From Candidatus Hydrogenedentota bacterium (GTDB lineage Bacteria; Hydrogenedentota; Hydrogenedentia; Hydrogenedentales; SLHB01), in contig CAVUWV010000021.1 of the NCBI GenBank assembly GCA_963745075.1, positions 64,001-128,000 on the forward strand: DNA of 64,000 bases. The letters are read 5' to 3'. Shown here in pieces: positions 37,084 through 60,613 of the stretch. The notes beneath the pieces are model-generated. The model searched no databases, was not told the DNA's origin, and worked only from the letters and a program-made list of their open reading frames with translations. Each line of letters opens with the position of its first letter. The first letter of the stretch is position 1. Both the position numbers and the translations under genes were made by a program.

Positions 37084-38606
37084 CAGCCCGTGGTAAAAGT
37101 CGCTTATCGCCAATTTTTTCTTGACAGATCGTTGGACGTTTGGCACATCGTCATTGTAGCACTGGAGAGGAGAGCGTGCGATGGCGATGGGCGAAGAAAA
37201 ACGGGACCGGCAGGAAACGATGTGGGTGGAGACGAGCTTGTTGCCGCGAGCGCCGGGCCACCCGTTTTACGAGCGGTTGAACGGGGTGCTGAAGAAGCAC
37301 GGTTTCACGCAGTTCGCGGAGGAGGAGTGCAGGCAGTACTACGCGGAGAAGCTGGGGCGGCCGAGTATTCCGCCGACGGTGTACTTCAAGATGCTGTTCA
37401 TCGGTTTCTTCGAAGGGATCGATTCGGAACGAGGGATCGCATGGCGCGTGGCGGACTCGATGGCGCTTCGGGATTTCCTCGGATATGACTTGACCGAAGG
37501 GACTCCGGACCATTCGAGCCTTTCCCGGACGCGGCGCTTGATGAGTTTGGAGACGCACCGGAAGGTGTTTCAATGGGTACTGACGGTGCTGGCCAAAGAA
37601 AAGATACTCAACGGCAAGACGCTGGGCTTTGACGCATCGACTCTGGAAGCGAACGCGGCACTACGCAGTATTGTGCGCCGGGATACGGGCGAGAGCTACG
37701 AGGAGTTCCTGACGCGGCTGGCCCAAGCATCGGGCATCGAGACGCCGACGCGGGCGGACTTGGCCAAGCTGGATAAGAAACGCAAGGGCAAAGGGTCGAA
37801 TAAGGACTGGGAACACCCGTTTGATCCCGACGCACGCATCACCAAGATGAAAGACGGGCGTACGCATCTGGCCCATAAGGCTGAGCACGCCGTGGACCTG
37901 GATAGCGGCGCGCTGGTCGCAGTGACCTTGCAGCCCGCGGACAAAGGCGATCCCGAAACCTTGCGCGAGACGGTGAGAGAAACCGCCGGGAACCTGGCTG
38001 AAGTGGAGCGCGATGAAGAGGCGGCAGACGAATTGGACGAGGACCTCATGAGCGAGGCGGTTCTGGACAAAGGCTACCACAGCAACGAAACATTGATGGT
38101 CCTGGATTTCATTGGTATGCGTTCCTATGCTTCCGAACCGGCCCGTGGCAGACGCGACTGGGAAGGCAAAGACTACGAGCGTTACTGCGTATACGGAAAC
38201 CGGCGGAGGATTCGCGGGAACCGTGGAAAGGCCTTGTTACGCCAGCGCGGGGAAAAGGTCGAACGCACCTTTGCGCACATGTACGAAACCGGCGGCATGC
38301 GACGAACGCATCTGCGCCATCGGGAGAACATCCTGAAACGGGTCCTGATTCACGCCAGCGGATTCAACCTCAGTCTCATCCTGCGCCGCCAACACGGATT
38401 CGGCAAGCCAAGGAGATTGCAGGACGGGTACCGGGTCGCAGAACCGGCCCTTTCTCGTCTGTTTAAGGCGTGCGTGAACACCATACAACGGTTATTCGGC
38501 GTACAAGGCCGCCCAGACAACTTCTGGAATCCCAACCACATCGTGCCGAACGCCACGTGACTCAACTACGAGAGAGAACTCAAAAGATGCCTTTTACCAC
38601 GGGCTG
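37084..38606 (+). mobile_element. Intact IS1182/IS5-like insertion sequence
   Basis: Perfect 16-bp terminal IRs CAGCCCGTGGTAAAAG (37084-37099 and 38591-38606), flanked by CTAG on both sides. Confidence 0.92.
37181..38560 (+). CDS. DDE transposase with DUF772-type N-terminus (IS1182-like)
   Basis: GRPSIPP, GIDSERG, TPDHSSLSRTR, FDASTLEANA, DKGY, VERTFAH. Confidence 0.92.
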   Translation: MAMGEEKRDRQETMWVETSLLPRAPGHPFYERLNGVLKKHGFTQFAEEECRQYYAEKLGRPSIPPTVYFKMLFIGFFEGIDSERGIAWRVADSMALRDFLGYDLTEGTPDHSSLSRTRRLMSLETHRKVFQWVLTVLAKEKILNGKTLGFDASTLEANAALRSIVRRDTGESYEEFLTRLAQASGIETPTRADLAKLDKKRKGKGSNKDWEHPFDPDARITKMKDGRTHLAHKAEHAVDLDSGALVAVTLQPADKGDPETLRETVRETAGNLAEVERDEEAADELDEDLMSEAVLDKGYHSNETLMVLDFIGMRSYASEPARGRRDWEGKDYERYCVYGNRRRIRGNRGKALLRQRGEKVERTFAHMYETGGMRRTHLRHRENILKRVLIHASGFNLSLILRRQHGFGKPRRLQDGYRVAEPALSRLFKACVNTIQRLFGVQGRPDNFWNPNHIVPNAT

Positions 38607-38947: not shown

Positions 38948-38976
38948 TTGACAAGGACTTAGATTGATGTTATTTT
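38948..38976 (+). promoter_or_regulatory. Sigma70-type promoter of the TPR / large surface protein locus
   Basis: TTGACA-N17-TATTTT with TG extension in an AT-rich tract; TGACA-N14-TGTCA inverted repeat upstream (about 38884-38907). Confidence 0.5.
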
Positions 38977-39128
38977 AATGGTGCAGTGGGTTGTTAGATC
39001 TAAAGGGTAACTAGAGATAATTGTTCGCTAAGGGGAGAATGGTGCATGATCGGGCTGCACTGCGGTTCGCTGCGTCGCTGGCCCCCTCCCTGCCCCGGGT
39101 TCTCCGGGAACTTCAAAGGACTTACACC

Positions 39129-40364
39129 ATGAGAAATGTTACCACCATCGCTCTGACTCTGCTTTTCTTGGGAAGTCTCGCACAGGCTGCAGCACCAACT
39201 GAGTCGGATCTTCTGACACAACGCCATCAAGCATTCCGAACGATGACAGCCGGGTATCCCATGCAGGCGGCCGTGGATCTCCTCAATGGGATTCATGCAT
39301 TGCCCACGGACGACCCGGCGGTTCTTGACTACGCGGGGGGAAACCTCCAACTCCTGCTCTTCGACACCAACCTTCTCATGACCGAACCCATGCGGAACGA
39401 GTTCTTTACGAAGCTCCTGGATACAAAAGAAAACGAGATTGACGCGTTGATCGCGACCCTGCATGAGGCTTCGTTGAAGCTTACGCCGGAGCAGGCCGAA
39501 GACTTCTTGGGCCGGCTTTGGAAGTACTCGCAAAGTTCCAACGATCTCGTTGCCGGGGTCGCACTGTATCTCCTGGCCGACCCTTACTATACGGAGGACA
39601 TGGACATCGGGATCGAGGCAAGCCACGAGATGGTAACCCGGTATCCCAACCTGGAAGCCACCCGCAATATGCTGGCGCTGCCGATCTACCACCGAAAGCT
39701 CCGCCCAGCCATCGCCGGGGAATGGATACGGGCCTACAAGGGTAAGCCTCAGGAGCCGGGAAAGCCGCGCATCCGCGAGACCACGAACGCGGAGAAGAAT
39801 GTGGCTGCACAGGATCCCTTCATCACGAACGTGGAACCTCTGGTGGACTATTTGAGCCAAAACGAAACGAAACGGAAAGGCATTGAGGGACTTCTCGCGC
39901 TCCTGGCTGATGAAAACACGGATTGGCGGGACCGCTACAGCTACCTGCGGATGCTGGAACCCGAAATGAAACCCCAGCCGGGTGGGACAGGCGCGCAAGG
40001 GTATTGGAAGCTCATCCAGCCCGGTGTGGAATCCCTCGCAAACCGCGGTGAACTCACACCGGATGTATACCACGCCCGGGTGTTGCTTTGCGAAGTGGAA
40101 AGCGCGGCCGGTGAGTTCGAGGACGCTTCGTATTGGGCTGAACGGCTCCTGACCGAGCAGGAGCGGCTCTACGAACATCCTGAACGCATTCTTTACGAAG
40201 AGACGATTCGAGTCTACACGGAGTTCGCGGAGAGTCTCGAAAAGGGGCAGTTGTACGAGGAGGCCGCGAAAACGTACGAACGCTTGGGGGACTACTATCC
40301 GAATAGCGCGATCGCGATTCAAGCACGGCAACTGGCATCGGAGGCGCGCGAGAAGTCCAAGTAG
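39129..40364 (+). CDS. Secreted alpha-helical/TPR-like protein
   Basis: Signal peptide MRNVTTIALTLLFLGSLAQA; C-terminal GQLYEEAAKTYERLGDYYPNS. Confidence 0.7.
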   Translation: MRNVTTIALTLLFLGSLAQAAAPTESDLLTQRHQAFRTMTAGYPMQAAVDLLNGIHALPTDDPAVLDYAGGNLQLLLFDTNLLMTEPMRNEFFTKLLDTKENEIDALIATLHEASLKLTPEQAEDFLGRLWKYSQSSNDLVAGVALYLLADPYYTEDMDIGIEASHEMVTRYPNLEATRNMLALPIYHRKLRPAIAGEWIRAYKGKPQEPGKPRIRETTNAEKNVAAQDPFITNVEPLVDYLSQNETKRKGIEGLLALLADENTDWRDRYSYLRMLEPEMKPQPGGTGAQGYWKLIQPGVESLANRGELTPDVYHARVLLCEVESAAGEFEDASYWAERLLTEQERLYEHPERILYEETIRVYTEFAESLEKGQLYEEAAKTYERLGDYYPNSAIAIQARQLASEAREKSK

Positions 40365-40479
40365 CGGCGCCGAACGAGGTTTGGACATCATCCGTCCATT
40401 TCATCAGGACGTATAACGAAAGCGAAGAGGGCTGAACGGGCGATCCGGCGCGAGCGCCGCCGCCAAAGGGGACACGGTA

Positions 40480-43400
40480 ATGGGTGGAATCGTTGTTCGG
40501 CGGATGCGGGCCGTCGCTGTTGGCAAGGTCCTTCTTCTGGTGCTGTTAACCGCGCTACTGGGACCCCAAGTCTTCCACCTCGTGGTCCTGGCCTGCGGAG
40601 ACGGGGGAAATGACCCGCCGAACCCTCCCCCACCTGCGAACACGCTCATTGTCAGCATGTCGGGAGCCGGAACCGTTACGGTGAACCCCTACGGAACGGG
40701 AGGCTCGTCTCAAGTCGTTACGTGGTCGGCGCATGTCAACTACACGTCCCCACAGTATGTCTCCTTAACGGCCAGCCCGGCTACGGGTTGGGTCTTTGAC
40801 AAGTGGGAGGAAACCGGGTCTACAAGCGCGTCGATTAGCCCCTATATCTCGGGAACGGACGAGTTCACTGCTATTTTTTCACCAAAACCGCCGGATGAAG
40901 ACCCGGACCAGTGGGTCTCGCTGCGCACGTCCGTATCACCCTCGGGAGCGTTGGCCGCGGGGTGCACGGTATCGCCGGCCGGCAAAACCAACCACGCCTT
41001 GGGAACGGAAGTGCCGCTCAAGCCGCAGGGCGCGGGCGGCTGGACGTTCAGCGGCTGGGACGGACCGGACGCGGACGACGTGGACACCTTCAACGATCCG
41101 CACATGATTGTGATGGACGCGGACAAGAAGGTTACAGCGGTCTTCACACAACAATTCGTGCTGAAAACAAGCACCAAGGGTAAAGGCGAGGTGACGGCCG
41201 TTCCCACCGGACCCACCTATAGTTCGGGAACGTCGGTCGAACTCACGGCCGAGCCGAATACAAGTCAAGGTTGGACCTTCGTGGAATGGCGCAACGATGC
41301 CTCCGGGACCAATGCAGTAACCAATGTGACGATGGACGCGGACAAGCACGCCAAAGCGGTATTCACGCGCGCAAACAGGAAGAGCCTGACGATCACCACC
41401 CCGGAAGGCTGCAAGATCCGGGTCGACGCGAATCCAAACGGGACGAGCAGCGGGACGAATCCGACGGAACCGGGCAACACCATTCTGCAGTTTACAGGTA
41501 CTTCCCAAGTGACATTGCGGGCGCACGTCTTCAGCGAGTACCGGGGGCAGGGCTACCGGTTTGTGCGGTGGGAAGGAGACGTGCCGGCGGGACAGGAGAC
41601 GAGCAATCCGGTGACGATCTCGGTGGACTCGGACAAGTCCGTCGAAGCCGTGCTCGAAGAGACGTTCCGGCTCAAAGTGGAATCCGAAGGGCCCGGCAGC
41701 GTGGATATCGATGCGCCCGCCGGATCGCAGGTGGGCAATAATCGCTACGTCGCTGGCACCGAGATCGGCCTGAGCGCAACGCCGCCGGAGAACTTTGTCG
41801 AGTGGGAAGGGTCCATCGGGGGAAGCAGCCCGGATAAGACGGTGACGATGGACTCAAACAAGTACGTGCTGGCCCAGTTTATGCCGGGAACGGGGGATTC
41901 GCCGCTGGTGAACATCAATTCCGTGGACATCGTGGCGGACACGATCAACGTGACCCTGGCGCCGGATGGCCATTCGGGGCCGTTTTCATTGACCCTGCAA
42001 GGGGACGGCACATCGCACGAAATCATGAGCGCGTCCCGTTCCTCCGGCACGCGGGACGAAAGTTTCGGCGTGTCCGCCATCCCGCCGGGCACGTACCACA
42101 GCATCCTCGCGGAATGGACGGTGGACGACGTGTCGTATTACGACGATTATCCCCTGAACCTGACCATCCTCGGCGGGGGCGAGGGTGAAGCCGAGGCAGA
42201 AGCGGAAGCCGAGGCAGAAGCCGAAGCCGAGGCAGAAGCAGAGGCCGAAGCCGAGGGCGAAGGCGAGGAGGAAGACCCGCCGCCGGTGGTGGTCTATCAT
42301 TATTCGGTTTCCGGCAGTTCGGTGGTCGATCTTCCACCTGCCTATACGTCTTCCGTTCCCGCTACCGAGGATTTCGTGTACGGCTACTTCAACGGCATCG
42401 CCGAGACTTACGCGAACGGGTATCCGGCGAGCGAAGACCCGGCGAATGGGACCAAATACTGCGGTCACAGTTGGGGTTACAGCGGGTATCTAACCGCTGA
42501 GACCAATTTCACGGTGGACTTCGAGGTCGAAAGCCCCAACGCACCTTGCGAGATTACGACGCCTGCGCCCGGAGACAAGGTCACACTGTTCCACAAATGG
42601 ACGGCCAGTGACAGTACCGAGTCCGCCGAGTACGCGGGAACCGCAGAGGTTAACCCGCAAGCCCCCAGTTTGGCGTTGACGGCGCATTTCAGGAACCATC
42701 AGTTGGTACTGGGCACGAATAATGGTCGTGATTATCTTTTGCCGGGCGAAGACTTGGAAGACGTACTTACGTATGATTTCGAGCCAGCTCTTCCAGAATC
42801 TGTGTCGGCCGAGTATACGGTGGAAACCATTGAGAACACGGATGATCGACAGGTTGTCCGAGTTACGGCGACGCTGACTACACCGACCGGAGTTCGATAC
42901 GCGGTGGCAACCGTAAACCACAACAAACTGAATCTTTCTAACATCGACTTCCTTGTCCCCGATGGACAGGGCGGGATGACCGTGCTTGCGCAGGGTGCGA
43001 ACGTTCCGCTCGACTTGGGCCATTACGAGTCGGCAACACAGACGTTTACACCGTGTGCCATGCCGGAAGTGACGGTGAGACTCAACGTACCTTCAAGCGT
43101 GCCGCAGGGAACTACCTACCGGTTCGTCGTCGGTAGCGATGCCTCAGGAGCCCACGCGCTGGAGTATGCCGACGCCCCAGCAACCGGTTACACGCATCCG
43201 GGGGCGTTGGACTCTGGCCAGCTCGCCCAGAACTCGTGGCAGATTGCGTGGGACCAGAATAGCAACGTCACGAATGAAGGGATCTACGGAGGCCATCTTA
43301 AGCGCCTGACCGTGGAGGTCCAGGTGCCGAATCAGGACCCTGAAAAGCAGACTCTGGTCGCGGGTAGCACCGCTGGATTCTCGGGAATCTATATTGTGGG

Positions 43401-44463
43401 GGGCGCGCTGCAACAAGCGACGGTAAATCAGTACATAAACTCCCGGACGCTCAACGATTTTGGACTTAGCACCAGTACAGTACCATTGAGTCAACTGCAG
43501 GCCATGGGTCGCGGTGTGGCTCGATGGGAGACATCGGACAACACTCACTTTCTTCCCATAAACCGTCACGGTTTGGACGGGTACGTATCGCATGACCGCT
43601 ACCCTATTTGGGAACTCAAGTTCACCAACGGTAACCCCAGCAGAGGTTTCGGGGTAGGACTTATGCAGATTTCGGAACAGCAAAACATAAATCGAGCCAC
43701 AATCTGGGACTGGCAACAAAACGTCAACGAGGGGATACAAATGCTCGAATCGTTTTATGCCAGTCAATCGATATTTTACTTGACGGCGCATACCGCCAAC
43801 CCGACAGCCGTTGACCTGCGGTTAACTACATACACGCATTATAACGGTGGCTCCGATTCCCACTATTATTGGTGGAACGATCAGGGCAGCGTCGTATCAT
43901 GTACAGAACTCACGTCGAGCACGACGAACAATACAGAGTCTCACAACCAAGCAACCACCAACTTGAACCTTGAGGTTAACAGTCTCGTTACGGGGCTTAC
44001 AGCGATCACACTTCAAAACGAGAGCAGTTCGACAAACGTAATCCCATGGACCGACCCATTGCCATCAACAAGCCCGTTTCAATGGACTTCGATCGCACTT
44101 ACGCTTTTTGCGACGCAAGGCAACGACTTCGTGTCAGGTTCAGACCAAGATCAAATAAACATCTTCCTATCCCTTGCTTATCAGGGGTCCACAACGCGAG
44201 AACGAATACACGAAGGAGCTCCGGCACCGTATGCAGTAAGCAATACGGCCGGTTTCCGGCCCGCCGCCGGGTGGGCCAAGATGGGATACATCCCTGTGGG
44301 AAATAGGAATGCTGGCTATCGGGATTACAACAGCGACGGGGTTCGTGATCAGCCAGGGGACCCATATAGCATACCCACATTTACCCCAGATTCCGCTCAC
44401 TTGAATAATGTAGTTGCTGATCGCGCTCCGCGATATGCTGACCGAGCATTGGCAGAAGAATAG
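40480..44463 (+). CDS. Large surface protein: InlB-B-like repeats, (EA)n linker and C-terminal lytic transglycosylase-like domain
   Basis: Hydrophobic leader with VLA-C; five repeats of the 'V.LTA.P..GW.F..W.G....M..DK.V.A.F' type; GEGE(AE)nGEGEEE linker; ARWETS, GVGLMQI, WDWQQNVNEG, YNGG. Confidence 0.8.
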   Translation: MGGIVVRRMRAVAVGKVLLLVLLTALLGPQVFHLVVLACGDGGNDPPNPPPPANTLIVSMSGAGTVTVNPYGTGGSSQVVTWSAHVNYTSPQYVSLTASPATGWVFDKWEETGSTSASISPYISGTDEFTAIFSPKPPDEDPDQWVSLRTSVSPSGALAAGCTVSPAGKTNHALGTEVPLKPQGAGGWTFSGWDGPDADDVDTFNDPHMIVMDADKKVTAVFTQQFVLKTSTKGKGEVTAVPTGPTYSSGTSVELTAEPNTSQGWTFVEWRNDASGTNAVTNVTMDADKHAKAVFTRANRKSLTITTPEGCKIRVDANPNGTSSGTNPTEPGNTILQFTGTSQVTLRAHVFSEYRGQGYRFVRWEGDVPAGQETSNPVTISVDSDKSVEAVLEETFRLKVESEGPGSVDIDAPAGSQVGNNRYVAGTEIGLSATPPENFVEWEGSIGGSSPDKTVTMDSNKYVLAQFMPGTGDSPLVNINSVDIVADTINVTLAPDGHSGPFSLTLQGDGTSHEIMSASRSSGTRDESFGVSAIPPGTYHSILAEWTVDDVSYYDDYPLNLTILGGGEGEAEAEAEAEAEAEAEAEAEAEAEGEGEEEDPPPVVVYHYSVSGSSVVDLPPAYTSSVPATEDFVYGYFNGIAETYANGYPASEDPANGTKYCGHSWGYSGYLTAETNFTVDFEVESPNAPCEITTPAPGDKVTLFHKWTASDSTESAEYAGTAEVNPQAPSLALTAHFRNHQLVLGTNNGRDYLLPGEDLEDVLTYDFEPALPESVSAEYTVETIENTDDRQVVRVTATLTTPTGVRYAVATVNHNKLNLSNIDFLVPDGQGGMTVLAQGANVPLDLGHYESATQTFTPCAMPEVTVRLNVPSSVPQGTTYRFVVGSDASGAHALEYADAPATGYTHPGALDSGQLAQNSWQIAWDQNSNVTNEGIYGGHLKRLTVEVQVPNQDPEKQTLVAGSTAGFSGIYIVGGALQQATVNQYINSRTLNDFGLSTSTVPLSQLQAMGRGVARWETSDNTHFLPINRHGLDGYVSHDRYPIWELKFTNGNPSRGFGVGLMQISEQQNINRATIWDWQQNVNEGIQMLESFYASQSIFYLTAHTANPTAVDLRLTTYTHYNGGSDSHYYWWNDQGSVVSCTELTSSTTNNTESHNQATTNLNLEVNSLVTGLTAITLQNESSSTNVIPWTDPLPSTSPFQWTSIALTLFATQGNDFVSGSDQDQINIFLSLAYQGSTTRERIHEGAPAPYAVSNTAGFRPAAGWAKMGYIPVGNRNAGYRDYNSDGVRDQPGDPYSIPTFTPDSAHLNNVVADRAPRYADRALAEE
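42178..42273 (+). repeat. Coding low-complexity repeat GEGE(AE)nGEGEEE
   Basis: Repeated gaagcc/gaggca hexamers with varied codons. Confidence 0.85.
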
Positions 44464-44521
44464 GCTGATTCCTGTAAAGCAATACGATGTGCAGGAGAAA
44501 TAGAACCAAGGAGATGATTCG

Positions 44522-45526
44522 ATGTCCACTCAGATGCGTGTAAAGCGCGCGCTTCAGACCAGTGCCCTCGTGCTGATGTCGTTTTTCTTGACGTTGGGAC
44601 AGGGCTTCGCTCAGGAGCCGGACTTCCATGATTTACTCCAAGTAGTTCGTGCGGCAACCGCCGATGGTGCCCGGTCTGCGCCGGGGATCGTTGCGCCGCC
44701 GGGTGCTCAGGGTCGTGCAGAGCAAAGCGCGTTAGTACGTGCCCAGGATTTGGCTGATTTGTATCATTCCACGAGTAAACCCATTTTCGGATTGGTCGTG
44801 AAGGGGTTCGAAGCGGGCTTGACGTTGGAGGGTATTCAGCAGCTCTCGGATCCGTACCTGACGTGGAGCGATTGGCCTTACAGGATTGGTCTCGACTCAG
44901 CGGTTAGACCCACCGGATTCGACAACAACGCGGCAAACCAGACTGCTGAAGACTCGCTCAGGGAGCAGGTCGTTCTGATATACCGGGAACATCGGGTGTC
45001 CGCCGACCTGCAACTAATATACCTCCAGACTTCGTACTGCTTTCCTAAGGTTCATGACCAATTCTTCTGGCGAAGCGTGGATATGGGGGTCATTATTCGA
45101 TCACCCGGGGAGGTCCGTCTGACCAGACTGCAATACCCGTTGGGGAATGAGTGGGTCGTGGGCAAGATCCCCGGACTCTTCCCCCTCTTGCTAGGATTCC
45201 TGCAACTCCCAGAGAGGGAGATGCCACTGATACTGGTTGGGCAGGCACCATCCGGTACGCAGCGGAACTGCTCCGTCTACATGTACCTTTGGTCCGACGA
45301 ACAAAACGAGTGGCTACACTTCAAGCTGATAAGCATGGAACACGTTGGAGACCTGATGTTCGATCCTGACACATCGAACTTGCTGATGTATAGCGGCTAT
45401 GCTTTGAATGAGGCGACTGGCCAGGTTGATGTTCCGATCCTCAATACCTCGATTCACGTACCGACGTTCTTGAAGGAGCACATAGAATACGTCAAAGAAC
45501 ATACCGGTATAGACCTATTTGACTGA
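44522..45526 (+). CDS. Secreted hypothetical protein, candidate immunity protein
   Basis: AAGGAG RBS; signal peptide ending GFA-Q; atypical AT-richer codons; immediately downstream of the muramidase-like gene. Confidence 0.65.
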   Translation: MSTQMRVKRALQTSALVLMSFFLTLGQGFAQEPDFHDLLQVVRAATADGARSAPGIVAPPGAQGRAEQSALVRAQDLADLYHSTSKPIFGLVVKGFEAGLTLEGIQQLSDPYLTWSDWPYRIGLDSAVRPTGFDNNAANQTAEDSLREQVVLIYREHRVSADLQLIYLQTSYCFPKVHDQFFWRSVDMGVIIRSPGEVRLTRLQYPLGNEWVVGKIPGLFPLLLGFLQLPEREMPLILVGQAPSGTQRNCSVYMYLWSDEQNEWLHFKLISMEHVGDLMFDPDTSNLLMYSGYALNEATGQVDVPILNTSIHVPTFLKEHIEYVKEHTGIDLFD

Positions 45527-45529
45527 ACA

Positions 45530-46690
45530 GTGGGTATTGAGAATCCGGAAACCGAATTTGTAGAGAACAAATGCGCGAACAATGGAAGTACACGGGGTTG
45601 CACTCAATCTACTCTCTCTATAGGGTATAGCGATGTCCCAAGTGCTCAACAGGTCCGAGCGGCGCGTTTTGCGGTCGCAACTGTCGCACTATTCCTCGTA
45701 AGCACTCTCCTTCCGTGTGCGGCGCAGACCATCAACATCCACGAGCACATCCAGTCCGAGGCCGAAGTGCCGAAGCTGCTGGCAGTGATGGACGCGTTGG
45801 GGATCGAGCGGACGGTGTTGGTGGGGAGTTCGTGGTTCACGATTACGTTGAACGAGGACGTGGGGTTTACCCGGTACGATGAGAACAACGAGGCGTTGTT
45901 GCGTATCGTGGAGCGGTATCCGGGTCGGTTCGAGGCGTGGCCGACGGTCAACCCGGAAGACCCGGAGATGCTGCCGAAGTTTCAGTCGCTGGTGGACCGT
46001 GGCGCGACGGGATTGAAACTGTATCTTGGCCACGGGTTCAAGTCCAAGAAGACGGGCACGTACTTCTTCCACACGCGGCCCCTGGACGACTCGTCGATGC
46101 TGCCACTCTATGCCTATTGCGAGGAACACTTCATCCCGGTGTGTTTCCACGTGAACCCCGGACCGAAGACGCCGGGGTTCGCCGAAGAGTTCATCGCGGT
46201 GCTCACGCAGTTCCCCGATTTGAAAGTCATCTGCCCCCACTTCATGTTGTCGTCGATCAAGGATTCGCGGCTGCGGGAGTTTCTGGACACCTTTCCGAAC
46301 CTGTATTCCGACATCAGCTTCGGCCACGACGACTACCTGAAGGCGGGGCTCAAACGGGTTTCGCGCGATCCCGCCAAGTTCCGGGGGCTGTTCCGGGAGT
46401 ATCCCGACCGGTTCATGTTCGGGACGGACTGCGTGATCACCGCTAACGAGCGGAAACACGAGGCCTGGATTCGCGCGCGGTACCAGTCCTACCTCGACAT
46501 GCTCCGGAAAGAGACCTACCAGTCCCCCCTCCTCCCCGGCCAGACTCTCCACGGCCTCGCCCTGCCCGCCGACCTCCTCGACCCCATCCTCCGCACCAAC
46601 TACGAAGCTTTCCTCAACAAGAAACCCACCGGCACACAAGTCACCAGGGAAATCGATTGGCGCCGCATGGGGGTGATGCACAAGAACTAA
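45530..46690 (+). CDS. Amidohydrolase family protein (Amidohydro_2-like); start uncertain
   Basis: INIHEH, GATGLKLY, PVCFHVN, ICPHF, NLYSDIS, DRFMFGTD. Confidence 0.85.
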   Translation: MGIENPETEFVENKCANNGSTRGCTQSTLSIGYSDVPSAQQVRAARFAVATVALFLVSTLLPCAAQTINIHEHIQSEAEVPKLLAVMDALGIERTVLVGSSWFTITLNEDVGFTRYDENNEALLRIVERYPGRFEAWPTVNPEDPEMLPKFQSLVDRGATGLKLYLGHGFKSKKTGTYFFHTRPLDDSSMLPLYAYCEEHFIPVCFHVNPGPKTPGFAEEFIAVLTQFPDLKVICPHFMLSSIKDSRLREFLDTFPNLYSDISFGHDDYLKAGLKRVSRDPAKFRGLFREYPDRFMFGTDCVITANERKHEAWIRARYQSYLDMLRKETYQSPLLPGQTLHGLALPADLLDPILRTNYEAFLNKKPTGTQVTREIDWRRMGVMHKN

Positions 46691-57277: not shown

Positions 57278-60200
57278 ATGTTACCACGGAATAGAACGTG
57301 CACTGTGGCCGTACTGGCCGCGCTACTCGCCGTAGCGGCATTTGCCGCGACGGATGCCATCGAGGAGCGTAAGGAGAGCATAGTTCGTGTCGCCCTGGAG
57401 AAACAGGGACGCGAGGCGGACACCGCTCTACTCGAATCGGCGCGCAACGCCGCGGCGATTGTGAGCCTGAAGTTGAGCGGCACGCCCGGAGGCTCGATGC
57501 TCCAGATCCATACCAATGGGCGCCCGGAATACGACTGGTTTTTCCTGGATGGCGAGGCAAAACTGGTGGTCGATTTCAAGAACACCATCAACTTCGAATC
57601 GGGCAACGTGCTGAAAGCGGAAAACGACCCATTGATCGAACGGGTGCGAACCAGCTTGTTTGCGCTGGAGCCTCAGTTTGTATCGCGTGTGGTCATCGAT
57701 ATGAAACGCGAAGCAAAACCGCTCTTCCGAGAAGTGGAAAAAGGACTCGAACTGCAATTCGCGTCCGCGGGCGCGCCCATCCAAGAATCCGCGCCTGCCC
57801 CCATTGGCAAAGCGATCGAAGACGTTACGCCAACTTCTCCCTCGGGCGCGGATGGTGAAAAGCCCGCACCGTTGCCGGAGGGCGCCAAACAGATTCTGGC
57901 GGACTTGAACCAACAGGAGCAGGCCATTCGCGACACCCGCGCGAAACTCGAAGAGGCCGCCCTTCGCGATCGCGCGGACCGTCCCGCGGTGAGCCTTGGC
58001 GAGACGCCGGACGCGGACTCGCCGGCCCAGCGTGCGTTGCGCACATTTATCGCGCAAGACGAAGCGACCAGCGCGGAATTCTGGCAGCGGGTCGACGACC
58101 TTACCGCTGCCGCAAACGACCGGATCGCCAAGTTGCGGGCTCGCGTCCGGGAACTTCAGGCATCCATCGAAAACGGCAACGTCGCTGAAAAGGCCGGCAA
58201 GTCGGCCATGCAGGGCCTCGCCAAAGAAGCCCGTGCCGGGATCGATACGGATCGGGCCGCGTTCGCCGATCGTTTCGCTGAACTGAATTCGCAGCAGGCA
58301 CAGTCGCAGGAAGCGTTCGTGCGACTGGCCAACGCCGCCGAACGGTCCCCCTCCCCCACTCCCGATACGGCCCCGGGTGTTTCCGCGAAAACCGTTACCG
58401 AAGCCTTGGAGGGGCTGAGCAAACAGTTGGCGAAAATGCCCGAACTGACCGATGCGAAGCGTGAGGCGGGTTCGGAAAAACAAACCGATGTCGCGGACGT
58501 GGCAGACGCCCCGGAATCGCCCGAAGCGGATGCGATGCTGGACAATACGCTGGCCTCGCTTCAGGAACCCGTCGCCCCGGTGATCGAAGACACCGTCCTG
58601 ACGACACCGGCGTCGGAAATGCAACTGGTAACTTCGGTGCCGTTGGATCTCGCTGCCGCGCAACTCCAGCACGGCGCAGACGCGGCCGCCACCGACCCGC
58701 CTGCGAAGCCGAAGCCGGAATCAACACCGAAGCCAGAATCTACACCGGAACCGGCGCCCGCGCCGGAGACAGAAAACAAAGCAATGCCGACGCCAGCCAA
58801 GGAAGCGGCGCCCGCAAAGGAAAAGGCGCCGGTGCAGGAGAAGCAGGCCGAACCGGTCGAGGCCAAACCAGCCAAAGAAGAGCCCAAACCGGCCGCCGCC
58901 GAGATGAAGCCGGAAGCGAAACCCGCTATGGAGAAGCCCGTCGAGAAACCGGTCGAGCAACCGGCGGCTGCCACGCCGGCAATTGAAACCGTGGAACAGG
59001 AACCCCTCGGCGAAGTCGAACGCCAGCAGCTCCCTCCGGGAATGGACCCCTTGGACCAGCCCGTCAACATCGACTTCCGGGAGATGGATCTGAGCGCAGT
59101 CGTCTCGCTGCTCGCGAAAAAAGCCCAGGTCAACGTGATCGCCGGTACGGACATCATCGGCACCGTAACCGCGGATATCCGCAATGTACCCCTGCGTCAG
59201 GCGATGGACATGGTCCTGCGCATGAACGGCTTGGGGATCGTTGAGGAAGAGGGCGTCTTTCGAATCGTTCCCTATGACGAAGCAGTCGCGGCGCGGCGCA
59301 TGACGCGCATGGTCGTGCTGAAGAACGCGCAAGCGAATGATGTAAAACTAACGTTGGACGGTATCCTCGTCGGTGCGCAGGACGCGCAGCTCGTTACGCT
59401 GTCCGCCAACGACGCCACAAACGTATTGATCGTTTCGGGCCCGGAAAAGCGCGTCGACGAATTTGAAGACCTGGCCCATCAGCTCGATGTATCGGAGCCG
59501 GCATTGCCGACGGTCACCGAGGCGATCAAGTTGAACTACCTCGAACCGGCCGATGCCAAGCCGATCGCCGAGTCGCTCATCACCGAAGATATCGGTAAGG
59601 TCGAGGCGGACGCACAAGGCCGCCACTTGATTGTGACGGATATGCCGGTGGTCGTCGAACAGATCCGCCGCGTCCTGAGCGACGTGGACAAGCCCGTGAA
59701 ACAGGTCGCCATCGAGGCGATGATCGTGGATGCCGTCATGCGCGATGCGTCGCAGACCGGCGTTTCGTGGATGCTGGACGCCATCCGGAAATACAGTACC
59801 AACGGCGACTTGATCAGCGATGTATCGCAGGCGGGTTTCCGAAGCAACCTCGGCGTGCCCTTCGACATAACGGGCAATCCCAGCGCGGCCGGCCTTCCAC
59901 AGGCCCTCGATGCGGGTGCCATCACGTTGGGAATCCTGACCAACGACATCCGGCTCAACAGCGTGATCGCCGCCGAAGCCCAGAGCCGGAACGCGGAAAT
60001 CCTGGCCAATCCAAGCGTGGTCACGGTGGAGAACCAGCCCGCCACGATCTCCATCGTGCAGGAATTCCCCTATCAGGAAATCACCCAGGGGCTGACGGGA
60101 CCGCCCGTCGCGACCACCGAGTTCAAAGACATCGGTGTGACCCTCGAAGTGACTCCCCGGGTCACGCATGAGAACGACACGATTATCGCCATCAAGGCGA

Positions 60201-60613
60201 AACAGAGTTCCGTGAGCGGACTGACGGAAACGGGCGTGCCCATCGAGGATCTGCGCGAAGCCGAAACGACACTGCGCGCTGAGGATGGCCGGACCATCTT
60301 CATCGGCGGCCTGCGCAACGTTTCCGACACCCACGCCGTGAGCAAGATTCCGGTACTCGGCGATATCCCCTTGCTCAACATCATGTTCAAGAACAGCAAC
60401 ATCGAAAAGGTCAACACCGAGCTGTTGATCTTCCTGACGTGCAAAGTGCTCGGCGACAGCCTTCCGGAACTGTCGCCGTCCCATCAGCGGGAATACGATA
60501 AGCTCGATGCGACGCCTGAGGTCCCGGACTCGCAGCGGGCGCTCTTCAAAGATTACGTGAAACCGCAGGAGATGCGCGACCCCATTTGGAAATGGCGCCG
60601 CTCCGTTCGATAG
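57278..60613 (+). CDS. pilQ: Type IV pilus secretin PilQ (AMIN domain, long linker, N-domains, secretin core)
   Basis: KLVVDF..RVVID AMIN domain; VNIDFREMDL; QVAIEAMIVD; IGVTLEVTP; KIPVLGDIP; TELLIFLT. Confidence 0.92.
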   Translation: MLPRNRTCTVAVLAALLAVAAFAATDAIEERKESIVRVALEKQGREADTALLESARNAAAIVSLKLSGTPGGSMLQIHTNGRPEYDWFFLDGEAKLVVDFKNTINFESGNVLKAENDPLIERVRTSLFALEPQFVSRVVIDMKREAKPLFREVEKGLELQFASAGAPIQESAPAPIGKAIEDVTPTSPSGADGEKPAPLPEGAKQILADLNQQEQAIRDTRAKLEEAALRDRADRPAVSLGETPDADSPAQRALRTFIAQDEATSAEFWQRVDDLTAAANDRIAKLRARVRELQASIENGNVAEKAGKSAMQGLAKEARAGIDTDRAAFADRFAELNSQQAQSQEAFVRLANAAERSPSPTPDTAPGVSAKTVTEALEGLSKQLAKMPELTDAKREAGSEKQTDVADVADAPESPEADAMLDNTLASLQEPVAPVIEDTVLTTPASEMQLVTSVPLDLAAAQLQHGADAAATDPPAKPKPESTPKPESTPEPAPAPETENKAMPTPAKEAAPAKEKAPVQEKQAEPVEAKPAKEEPKPAAAEMKPEAKPAMEKPVEKPVEQPAAATPAIETVEQEPLGEVERQQLPPGMDPLDQPVNIDFREMDLSAVVSLLAKKAQVNVIAGTDIIGTVTADIRNVPLRQAMDMVLRMNGLGIVEEEGVFRIVPYDEAVAARRMTRMVVLKNAQANDVKLTLDGILVGAQDAQLVTLSANDATNVLIVSGPEKRVDEFEDLAHQLDVSEPALPTVTEAIKLNYLEPADAKPIAESLITEDIGKVEADAQGRHLIVTDMPVVVEQIRRVLSDVDKPVKQVAIEAMIVDAVMRDASQTGVSWMLDAIRKYSTNGDLISDVSQAGFRSNLGVPFDITGNPSAAGLPQALDAGAITLGILTNDIRLNSVIAAEAQSRNAEILANPSVVTVENQPATISIVQEFPYQEITQGLTGPPVATTEFKDIGVTLEVTPRVTHENDTIIAIKAKQSSVSGLTETGVPIEDLREAETTLRAEDGRTIFIGGLRNVSDTHAVSKIPVLGDIPLLNIMFKNSNIEKVNTELLIFLTCKVLGDSLPELSPSHQREYDKLDATPEVPDSQRALFKDYVKPQEMRDPIWKWRRSVR

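Follow-up and report, generated by a model that had tools for sequence, protein, structure and literature searches.

We analysed a 64,000-nucleotide stretch of a Candidatus Hydrogenedentota genome (contig CAVUWV010000021.1, positions 64,001 to 128,000; hereafter the window, to which the coordinates below refer) and focused on a locus in which a tetratricopeptide repeat (TPR) gene precedes a stalked carrier protein and an exported partner. The locus probably encodes a Sec-exported toxin that cuts the peptidoglycan of neighbours without the matching periplasmic inhibitor, is aided by the TPR protein and is re-armed by cassette recombination. It is likely a new form of Sec-exported polymorphic toxin system in Hydrogenedentota, and probably a kind of weapon against competing bacteria, spread through this little-studied phylum, that has not been described before. 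An initial annotation had proposed a polymorphic-toxin architecture of stalk, foreign toxic tip and cognate periplasmic immunity; the fold of the tip, its exchange, its linkage to the partner and a co-fold now support this proposal. The open reading frames, including the TPR gene and an insertion sequence upstream, lie where that annotation had placed them. The features of the locus are as follows.

39129..40364, forward strand: TPR-family gene, about 411 residues; the longest open reading frame starts at 39021.
40480..44463, forward strand: carrier-toxin gene, 1327 residues.
40480..44463, forward strand: order of parts in the carrier, namely either a signal peptide or a candidate lipobox at Cys39, the InlB-B repeats, a likely Ig-like domain, an (EA)n linker, a mid-stalk, a pre-tip domain and a predicted lysozyme-fold tip.
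40640..41890 (approximate), forward strand: five InlB-B (Flg_new_2) repeats in five Pfam stretches, of which a second scan places three.
41992..42920, forward strand: stalk segment, residues ~505-813, common to two headless cassettes on contig C14 of this genome (72-74% nucleotide identity).
42175..42270, forward strand: acidic (EG/EA)n linker, starting at residue 567.
42931..43428, forward strand: pre-tip domain, residues 818-983, ~80% identical to that of the congener G003.
43400..44460, forward strand: predicted lytic-transglycosylase or g-lysozyme-like tip, with the Glu1017 codon at 43528 and an inserted sandwich at residues ~1142-1246.
44522..45526, forward strand: exported partner gene, 334 residues, a predicted inhibitor (immunity protein), with a conserved loop S244-N249 at nucleotides 45251-45268 (family alignment A4).
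45530..46690, forward strand: Amidohydrolase_2 gene, the 3' flank of the cassette.

To characterise the tip, we built a structure model from 24 sequences, with a predicted local distance difference test (pLDDT) of 83 and a predicted template modelling score (pTM) of 0.83, and compared it with 48,161 chains. The results showed that the top 14 matches all belonged to the lysozyme superfamily, to which we assigned them from general knowledge of the entries. The tip aligned with MltF (Z 8.9, root-mean-square deviation (rmsd) 3.5, 152 aligned residues), g-type lysozyme (Z 8.7, rmsd 3.1, 134 aligned) and MltC (Z 8.7, rmsd 2.5, 125 aligned); matches to lytic transglycosylases and g-type lysozymes spanned Z 8.0-8.9, and Tse3, a muramidase belonging to a type VI secretion system (T6SS), gave Z 5.9. 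The C-terminal region is therefore predicted to have the lysozyme-like fold that had been expected of it, and it carries the SLT/lysozyme-like motifs in the order and at the positions described earlier: Glu1017 (nucleotide 43528), GVGLMQI at residue 1058, WDWQQNVNEG at residue 1076 and YNGG at residue 1121. In the model, Glu1017 ends the first long helix and lies in the cleft, its column being conserved in at least 90% of the 11-sequence alignment A2, and an Ig/FN3-like beta-sandwich is inserted at residues ~1142-1246. The tip is thus predicted to have a lysozyme/transglycosylase fold with Glu1017 as the catalyst, and to represent a new family of cell-wall enzymes. As sequence-level support is weak, the tip may be a transglycosylase or a muramidase alike, and the structural matches to the two were tied. 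Among 1.84 billion representatives searched, 32 relatives of the tip were found, and the N-termini of the 29 inspected differed greatly (FN3/Ig-type, Ser-rich or short).

We also searched for relatives of the 334-residue partner. A direct search returned only two, while reading downstream of the tip homologues revealed an exported family of ~250-440 residues with an LGF...P...GP-x-GSG motif. The 44522 gene, earlier regarded as an orphan, therefore has a family, and in 21 of the 25 tip loci counted as close a member of it lies directly 3' of the tip. These 25 comprised 17 metagenome and four genome loci (tblastn E <= 1e-16), three phylum loci and the window, and a linked locus was one whose next gene matched the partner profile; 13 of the linked loci built that profile and eight did not, two of the eight being near-duplicates of profile members. 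The partner family was found downstream of none of 34 more distant lysozyme-like loci, and it was not seen without a tip among the loci retrieved for this count. Over 14 pairs, the identities of tip and partner covaried (rho 0.64, Mantel p 0.0004, kinship not removed).

The tip was then co-folded with the 44522 product, as the initial annotation had suggested. The pair scored 0.62, compared with 0.01 for the best control. Of 157 solved pairs, 116 reached a score of 0.62, as did 2 of 215 mismatched ones; at least 72% of contacts were common to the runs, and the partner had a pLDDT of at least 71. The confident contacts joined S244-N249 of the partner to Y1121-G1124, Q1063 and S1065 of the tip (tip numbering is model residue + 960), with E1017 in the interface. 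The conserved Ser-Gly loop of the partner is thus predicted to sit in the catalytic cleft of the tip. The co-fold supports binding between tip and partner, without demonstrating it, and the 44522 product is predicted to be the inhibitor (immunity protein) of the tip and a member of a new inhibitor family.

The partner model (pLDDT 74) consisted of helices followed by a beta-meander. In a wide structural search it matched nothing beyond fragments of beta-propellers and helical bundles (best Z 7.7), and we therefore assign it no fold, and Foldseek gave no match at E <= 0.001. Pfam matched the 334-residue protein to none of the PliC, MliC, PliI, PliG and Tsi3 families, nor did these occur among the listed structural matches; PliI is a lead only (Atlas, 0.85). 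Pfam named two of the 16 partners and tips scanned, with HEAT repeats in one and weak matches in another. Separately, two distant lysozyme-like tips (L063:1793-2908 and L064:6467-7591) are followed by a different exported partner of ~370 residues, beta-propeller-like by eye, and are candidates for a second toxin-immunity pairing. One further tip-partner pair (L089:1454-9444), with a long Ser-rich linker, has by eye a relaxase-like gene next to it and glycosyltransferase-like genes downstream, a setting which suggests that the module also travels on a mobile element.

We compared the carrier with the rest of the genome and with congeners. Pfam placed Flg_new_2 in five stretches of the carrier (E 3e-29), in agreement with the five InlB-B-like repeats counted before. 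An acidic linker of this kind occurred in two open reading frames genome-wide, the window carrier and one cassette on contig C14. At the end of C14 the stalk segment of residues ~505-813 recurs twice, in headless cassettes. The first part of this array holds a 667-residue exported protein, an amidohydrolase, a stalk fragment with an unrelated 246-residue tip, and an exported HEAT-repeat protein; the second part holds an amidohydrolase, a stalk fragment, an out-of-frame DUF900 alpha/beta-hydrolase, a 673-residue exported protein (29% identical to the 667-residue one) and a partial amidohydrolase. The whole array spans L001:7739-19915 (G000:C14 end), with three amidohydrolase copies and one hydrolase cassette out of frame. 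The 246-residue tip (after L001:15853) and its HEAT partner matched no toxin family. The repeat unit of amidohydrolase and stalk fragment is 1887 bp long at 93.6% identity, and the window amidohydrolase is 89-90% identical in nucleotides to the three C14 copies. Homology of the carrier to C14 stops at residues ~810-817, where identity falls from 57-73% to 17-20%, marking a first exchange point.

A second exchange point appeared in the comparison with G003, whose identity to the carrier collapses after residue ~983: it is 80% over residues 725-983 and 31% over residues 1016-1141, corresponding to a diverged tip. Between its TPR and amidohydrolase genes, G003 carries a 120-residue orphan, a transposase-like gene, a 5'-truncated carrier and a 441-residue partner, which is 24% alike to the window partner over 102 residues. 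These results indicate that the same stalk bears different C-termini with different downstream genes, as had been anticipated. From the repeated flanks we infer that the stalk and the amidohydrolase may serve as two homology arms for the exchange and stacking of tip-partner cassettes. Orphan headless tip-immunity cassettes were found in the C14 array and also at G094:C22 and G107 loci.

The TPR gene was present in all five congeners, and a close amidohydrolase (83-84% amino acid identity) in three of them. The gene before the amidohydrolase is of the 673-residue type in G005 and G004; in G002, that type follows a fragment resembling, by eye, the C-terminus of the C14 hydrolase. A transposase-like gene, presumably of the REP-associated type, stands in or beside the cassette slot of three congeners (L018:4803-5561, L042:9700-10458 and L044:3-677). 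Elsewhere in G003 (L019:13063-14945, G003:C32), a 290-residue protein shares the carrier segment of residues 481-565 and is followed by a 332-residue exported gene. This pair is probably another cassette; we take the end of the 290-residue protein, which has no Pfam match, to resemble a 3D/DPBB wall-enzyme motif.

We next examined the TPR gene across the phylum. Its product is exported and matches TPR_6 (Pfam, E 3.6e-5), and the genome has one full-length copy. Homologues were found in 30 of 135 phylum genomes, with up to four per genome. Leaving aside the window and its five congener orthologues, 21 of the 36 TPR matches were inspected, and four ended at a contig edge, leaving 17 informative loci. 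The results showed that an InlB-B protein (Pfam) lies directly 3' of the TPR gene in 13 of the 17; among the other four, three have a signal-peptide protein of similar build, judged by eye. L162 has a truncated-looking TPR gene and no carrier. Chance is an unlikely cause of the pairing, given that the whole genome holds only three InlB-B loci and a single full-length TPR copy, though kin are not independent. The genes 3' of the TPR gene encode 263 to >3382 residues, some being cut by the stretch retrieved, and an exported gene follows the carrier wherever the carrier is complete. Rhs cores occur in the TPR-led carriers of L145, L152 and L164 (in L161, RHS lies in a separate second gene), DUF7689 occurs in L147 and L157, and L160 has a weak M10-like peptidase match.

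The TPR gene is thus a conserved head gene that marks phylum-wide loci, and its product is likely a chaperone or export helper. Three elements go beyond the earlier description of the locus, namely the conservation of the TPR gene across the phylum, the Rhs cores of some TPR-led carriers and the amidohydrolase as a fixed flank of the cassette. The matches of the TPR protein in the PDB were generic TPR stretches. BamD was considered as an identity and not adopted, as only one of 18 TPR members matched it in NCBIfam, and weakly. For both the tip and the TPR protein, Candidatus Hydrogenedentes is the source name given with the homologues, which points to the host phylum.

We compared the locus with known systems, the cited papers being represented here by the parts available to us. 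As described in those parts of PMC4436062 and PMC3482391, polymorphic toxins have a signal peptide, a repeat stalk, a variable C-terminal toxin, a downstream immunity gene and orphan cassettes, all in common with this locus. The locus has the four sequence-testable features of such a system (PMC4436062, PMC3482391), namely a multidomain secreted protein in which the N-terminal part is conserved and the C-terminal tip is a predicted enzyme (signal peptide by eye), one stalk that occurs with different C-termini, a tip-specific gene immediately downstream (21 of 25 loci; co-fold 0.62), and orphan cassettes of tip and immunity gene that have no head. The corresponding class in Table 1 of PMC3482391 lists neither a neighbourhood signature gene nor InlB-B repeats, whereas here there is a TPR head gene and the immunity is extracytoplasmic. 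The words 'transglycosylase' and 'Listeria' do not occur in the first 300,000 of the 357,715 characters of that paper.

Of the earlier statement that the carrier is not of the Rhs, CdiA or T6SS type, the Rhs and T6SS parts held for the window protein, and the Rhs part failed for some other members of the family. Pfam found no RHS/YD repeat core, no TPS domain and no VgrG, PAAR or Hcp domain on the window carrier, but some TPR-led carriers hold Rhs cores. A search of the 89.7%-complete genome for VipB, the sheath gene of the T6SS, came back empty, with a positive E. coli control; a search of the genome for ShlB (TpsB) gave no match, and its control likewise gave none. The MafA-MafB-MafI systems of Neisseria share an exported helper upstream of a secreted polymorphic toxin and immunity gene (PMC7738311, PMC4436062), and MafA is required for the secretion of MafB (PMC7738311). 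Here, in contrast, the helper has the alpha-helical build of a TPR protein, the wall is the predicted target of the tip, and Pfam gave no MafA/DUF1020 match at the locus. The SitB-SitA-SitI lipoprotein toxins of myxobacteria also have an accessory gene directly upstream of a modular toxin, and the carrier shows a lipobox-like motif by eye; SitA toxins, however, use TraAB outer-membrane exchange and enter the cytoplasm (PMC8546572), whereas the stalk here consists of InlB/Ig repeats. In the Gram-positive S8-peptidase/BetaH system, a conserved secreted gene lies mostly upstream of variable toxin-immunity pairs, but this signature gene is a peptidase and the TPR proteins are the downstream immunity proteins (PMC9424270). 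By analogy, the organisation resembles the Maf, Sit and S8-peptidase systems as their sources portray them, but no shared signature domain was found.

For the partner, the closest parallels are Tse3-Tsi3 and PliC/MliC/PliI/PliG, in which an exported protein blocks a lysozyme-fold enzyme, as is predicted here (PMC5507604; PDB 4luq). In the known lysozyme inhibitors a Ser-Gly loop, SxSGAxY, fills the active site (PMC5507604), whereas the loop predicted to do so here is the family loop GP-x-GSG. Simple toxin-immunity pairs bearing a lipobox have already been described (PMC12419801). No description of this Hydrogenedentota system was found in the openly searchable literature, subscription journals and the supplements of Zhang 2012 and Lipocone lying outside the search.

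Together, the gene order, domain content, tip exchange on one stalk, tip-partner linkage and phylum-wide linkage of TPR and InlB-B genes favour the stalked, wall-cutting toxin, for which we infer a route of export, a target and killing as follows. The TPR, carrier and partner proteins would all cross the inner membrane by Sec. The TPR protein would bind the stalk in the periplasm and aid its folding or exit, possibly via a secretin system of the genome, which has seven secretin matches. The stalk would keep the tip away from its own cell and bind a neighbour, whose wall the tip would cut unless that neighbour had the matching partner. The partner would plug the active site of the tip, so it likely protects the producer. 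Tips would be swapped by recombination, for which the stalk segment on one side and the amidohydrolase gene downstream would be the sites, and tandem orphan cassettes would be left behind.

Several observations weigh against this toxin reading. For the tip, the Z scores near 8-9 are moderate, the Pfam Lysozyme_like match is weak (E 0.059), Pfam SLT has no match in the carrier and matches two of 24 tip-family members (best E 0.00099), and neither PDB sequence searches with the tip and its profile nor Foldseek at E <= 0.001 gave a match; tip homologues with short N-termini (e.g. P0018) could be ordinary secreted enzymes. For the partner, four of the 25 close tip loci lack one (the truncated L052 and L059, and also L057 and L090, where there is none), the partners are large (250-680 residues), some with C-terminal membrane anchors, and the co-fold calibration counts hold only roughly, since the co-fold used custom alignments. 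For delivery, a Pfam scan of the carrier gave no processing protease, and the locus showed no dedicated transporter. For exchange, the contig end cuts off the start of the C14 array, and an intact TPR-carrier-partner unit was seen in none of the five congeners within the DNA available: in G003 and G005 there is an interruption beside a transposase, in G004 the sequence stops at the TPR gene, and no carrier was seen in G001 and G002 within the 470-1200 nucleotides available.

A rather unlikely alternative is a tool for feeding or predation, in which surface enzymes degrading walls, lipids and proteins serve to lyse unrelated bacteria or to scavenge them; the biochemistry would be the same, the target would not be kin, and the partner would only shield the producer's wall during export. 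Consistent with this, the identifiable tips are extracytoplasmic hydrolases (the lysozyme fold, the alpha/beta-hydrolase and the weak M10-like peptidase match) that need no entry into the target cytoplasm and have exported partners. The exchange of tips among congeners and the stockpiling of orphan cassettes, however, are a published signature of conflict between related strains in the available part of PMC4436062. The existence of Rhs-bearing members also argues against feeding. It is quite improbable that the tip is a housekeeping enzyme remodelling the producer's own wall under a dedicated periplasmic regulator. Cells do restrain their own wall hydrolases by inhibitors, and the best structural matches are endogenous lytic transglycosylases, but the tip was present in only seven of the 135 phylum genomes searched, is truncated or not found in congeners and has a lower GC content at third codon positions (GC3), and non-wall enzymes replace it on the same stalk. 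A non-toxic role in self/non-self recognition or adhesion, with variable tips and surface partners as ligand and receptor, is highly improbable: the stalks are adhesin-like, the partners are large and sometimes membrane-anchored and some tips have no known enzyme match, but the Glu at the catalytic position is conserved and the partner is predicted to lie in the catalytic cleft in the manner of an inhibitor.

Within the preferred reading of a stalked toxin, a bolder version is possible, though we regard it as doubtful. The TPR protein might be a factor dedicated to export or loading and might recognise the first InlB-B repeat, which stands behind a proline-rich spacer, thereby forming a new T6SS-free delivery route for interchangeable warheads (wall hydrolases, lipases, peptidases and whole Rhs capsules), and the partner might be a new lysozyme-inhibitor fold that reached the Ser-Gly plug independently. 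With the predicted system, a phylum that is little known and mostly uncultured would gain a main weapon system; its signature gene, the TPR family, offers a way to gather tips and partners, several of them without a Pfam family match. It would also bring in a cell-wall enzyme family that is new, for which a cognate inhibitor is predicted and the interface named. If the upstream helper acts like MafA, the system bears on how Sec-exported polymorphic toxins of diderms cross the outer membrane.

The signal peptide of the carrier was recognised by eye only, as was the lipobox-like pattern VLA-C at residues 36-39, a candidate lipobox. We also examined base composition. The best GC3 change point in the carrier fell at residue 746 (nucleotide 42718), with 0.73 before and 0.57 after it, in line with the report that codons become AT-richer from ~42.7 kb. 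The continuation of this trend through the next gene was borne out only in part: the shift into the partner gene is modest, its GC3 being 0.64, where the TPR gene has 0.69 and the amidohydrolase 0.86. Two further features lie upstream of the TPR gene.

37181..38560, forward strand: DDE transposase (DUF772 + DDE_Tnp_1_6, Pfam), an incidental neighbour.
38948..38976, forward strand: sigma-70-like promoter match, TTGACA-17-TATTTT with an extended TG, matching at 10 of 12 positions.

The insertion sequence was rejected as a component of the system, as neither G003 nor G005 has such an open reading frame listed ahead of its TPR gene. The promoter scan found three sites against 3.7 expected in shuffled sequence, so the match at 38948 is a lead only, and a terminator scan of the locus stayed at chance level. 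PADLOC matched none of seven proteins. Two of the secretin matches fall within the 64-kb window, at ~59978-60451 (~14 kb downstream of the locus) and at 1095-1547.

Other loci of this genome carry related parts. Two paralogous secreted proteins of 2038 and 906 residues with C-terminal membrane anchors lie at L165:4894-14482 (G000:C10), the larger with seven InlB-B matches and with no TPR-family gene in front. At L002:12766-14403 (G000:C30), a contig end holds a protein with Peptidase M23, BACON and SLT domains next to an InlB-B fragment, which looks like a gene for a surface wall hydrolase that has been broken up. Two headless Rhs-fragment clusters (L166:6362-13272 and L167:6572-11602; G000:C10 and C27) are each followed by exported genes of ~315 residues.

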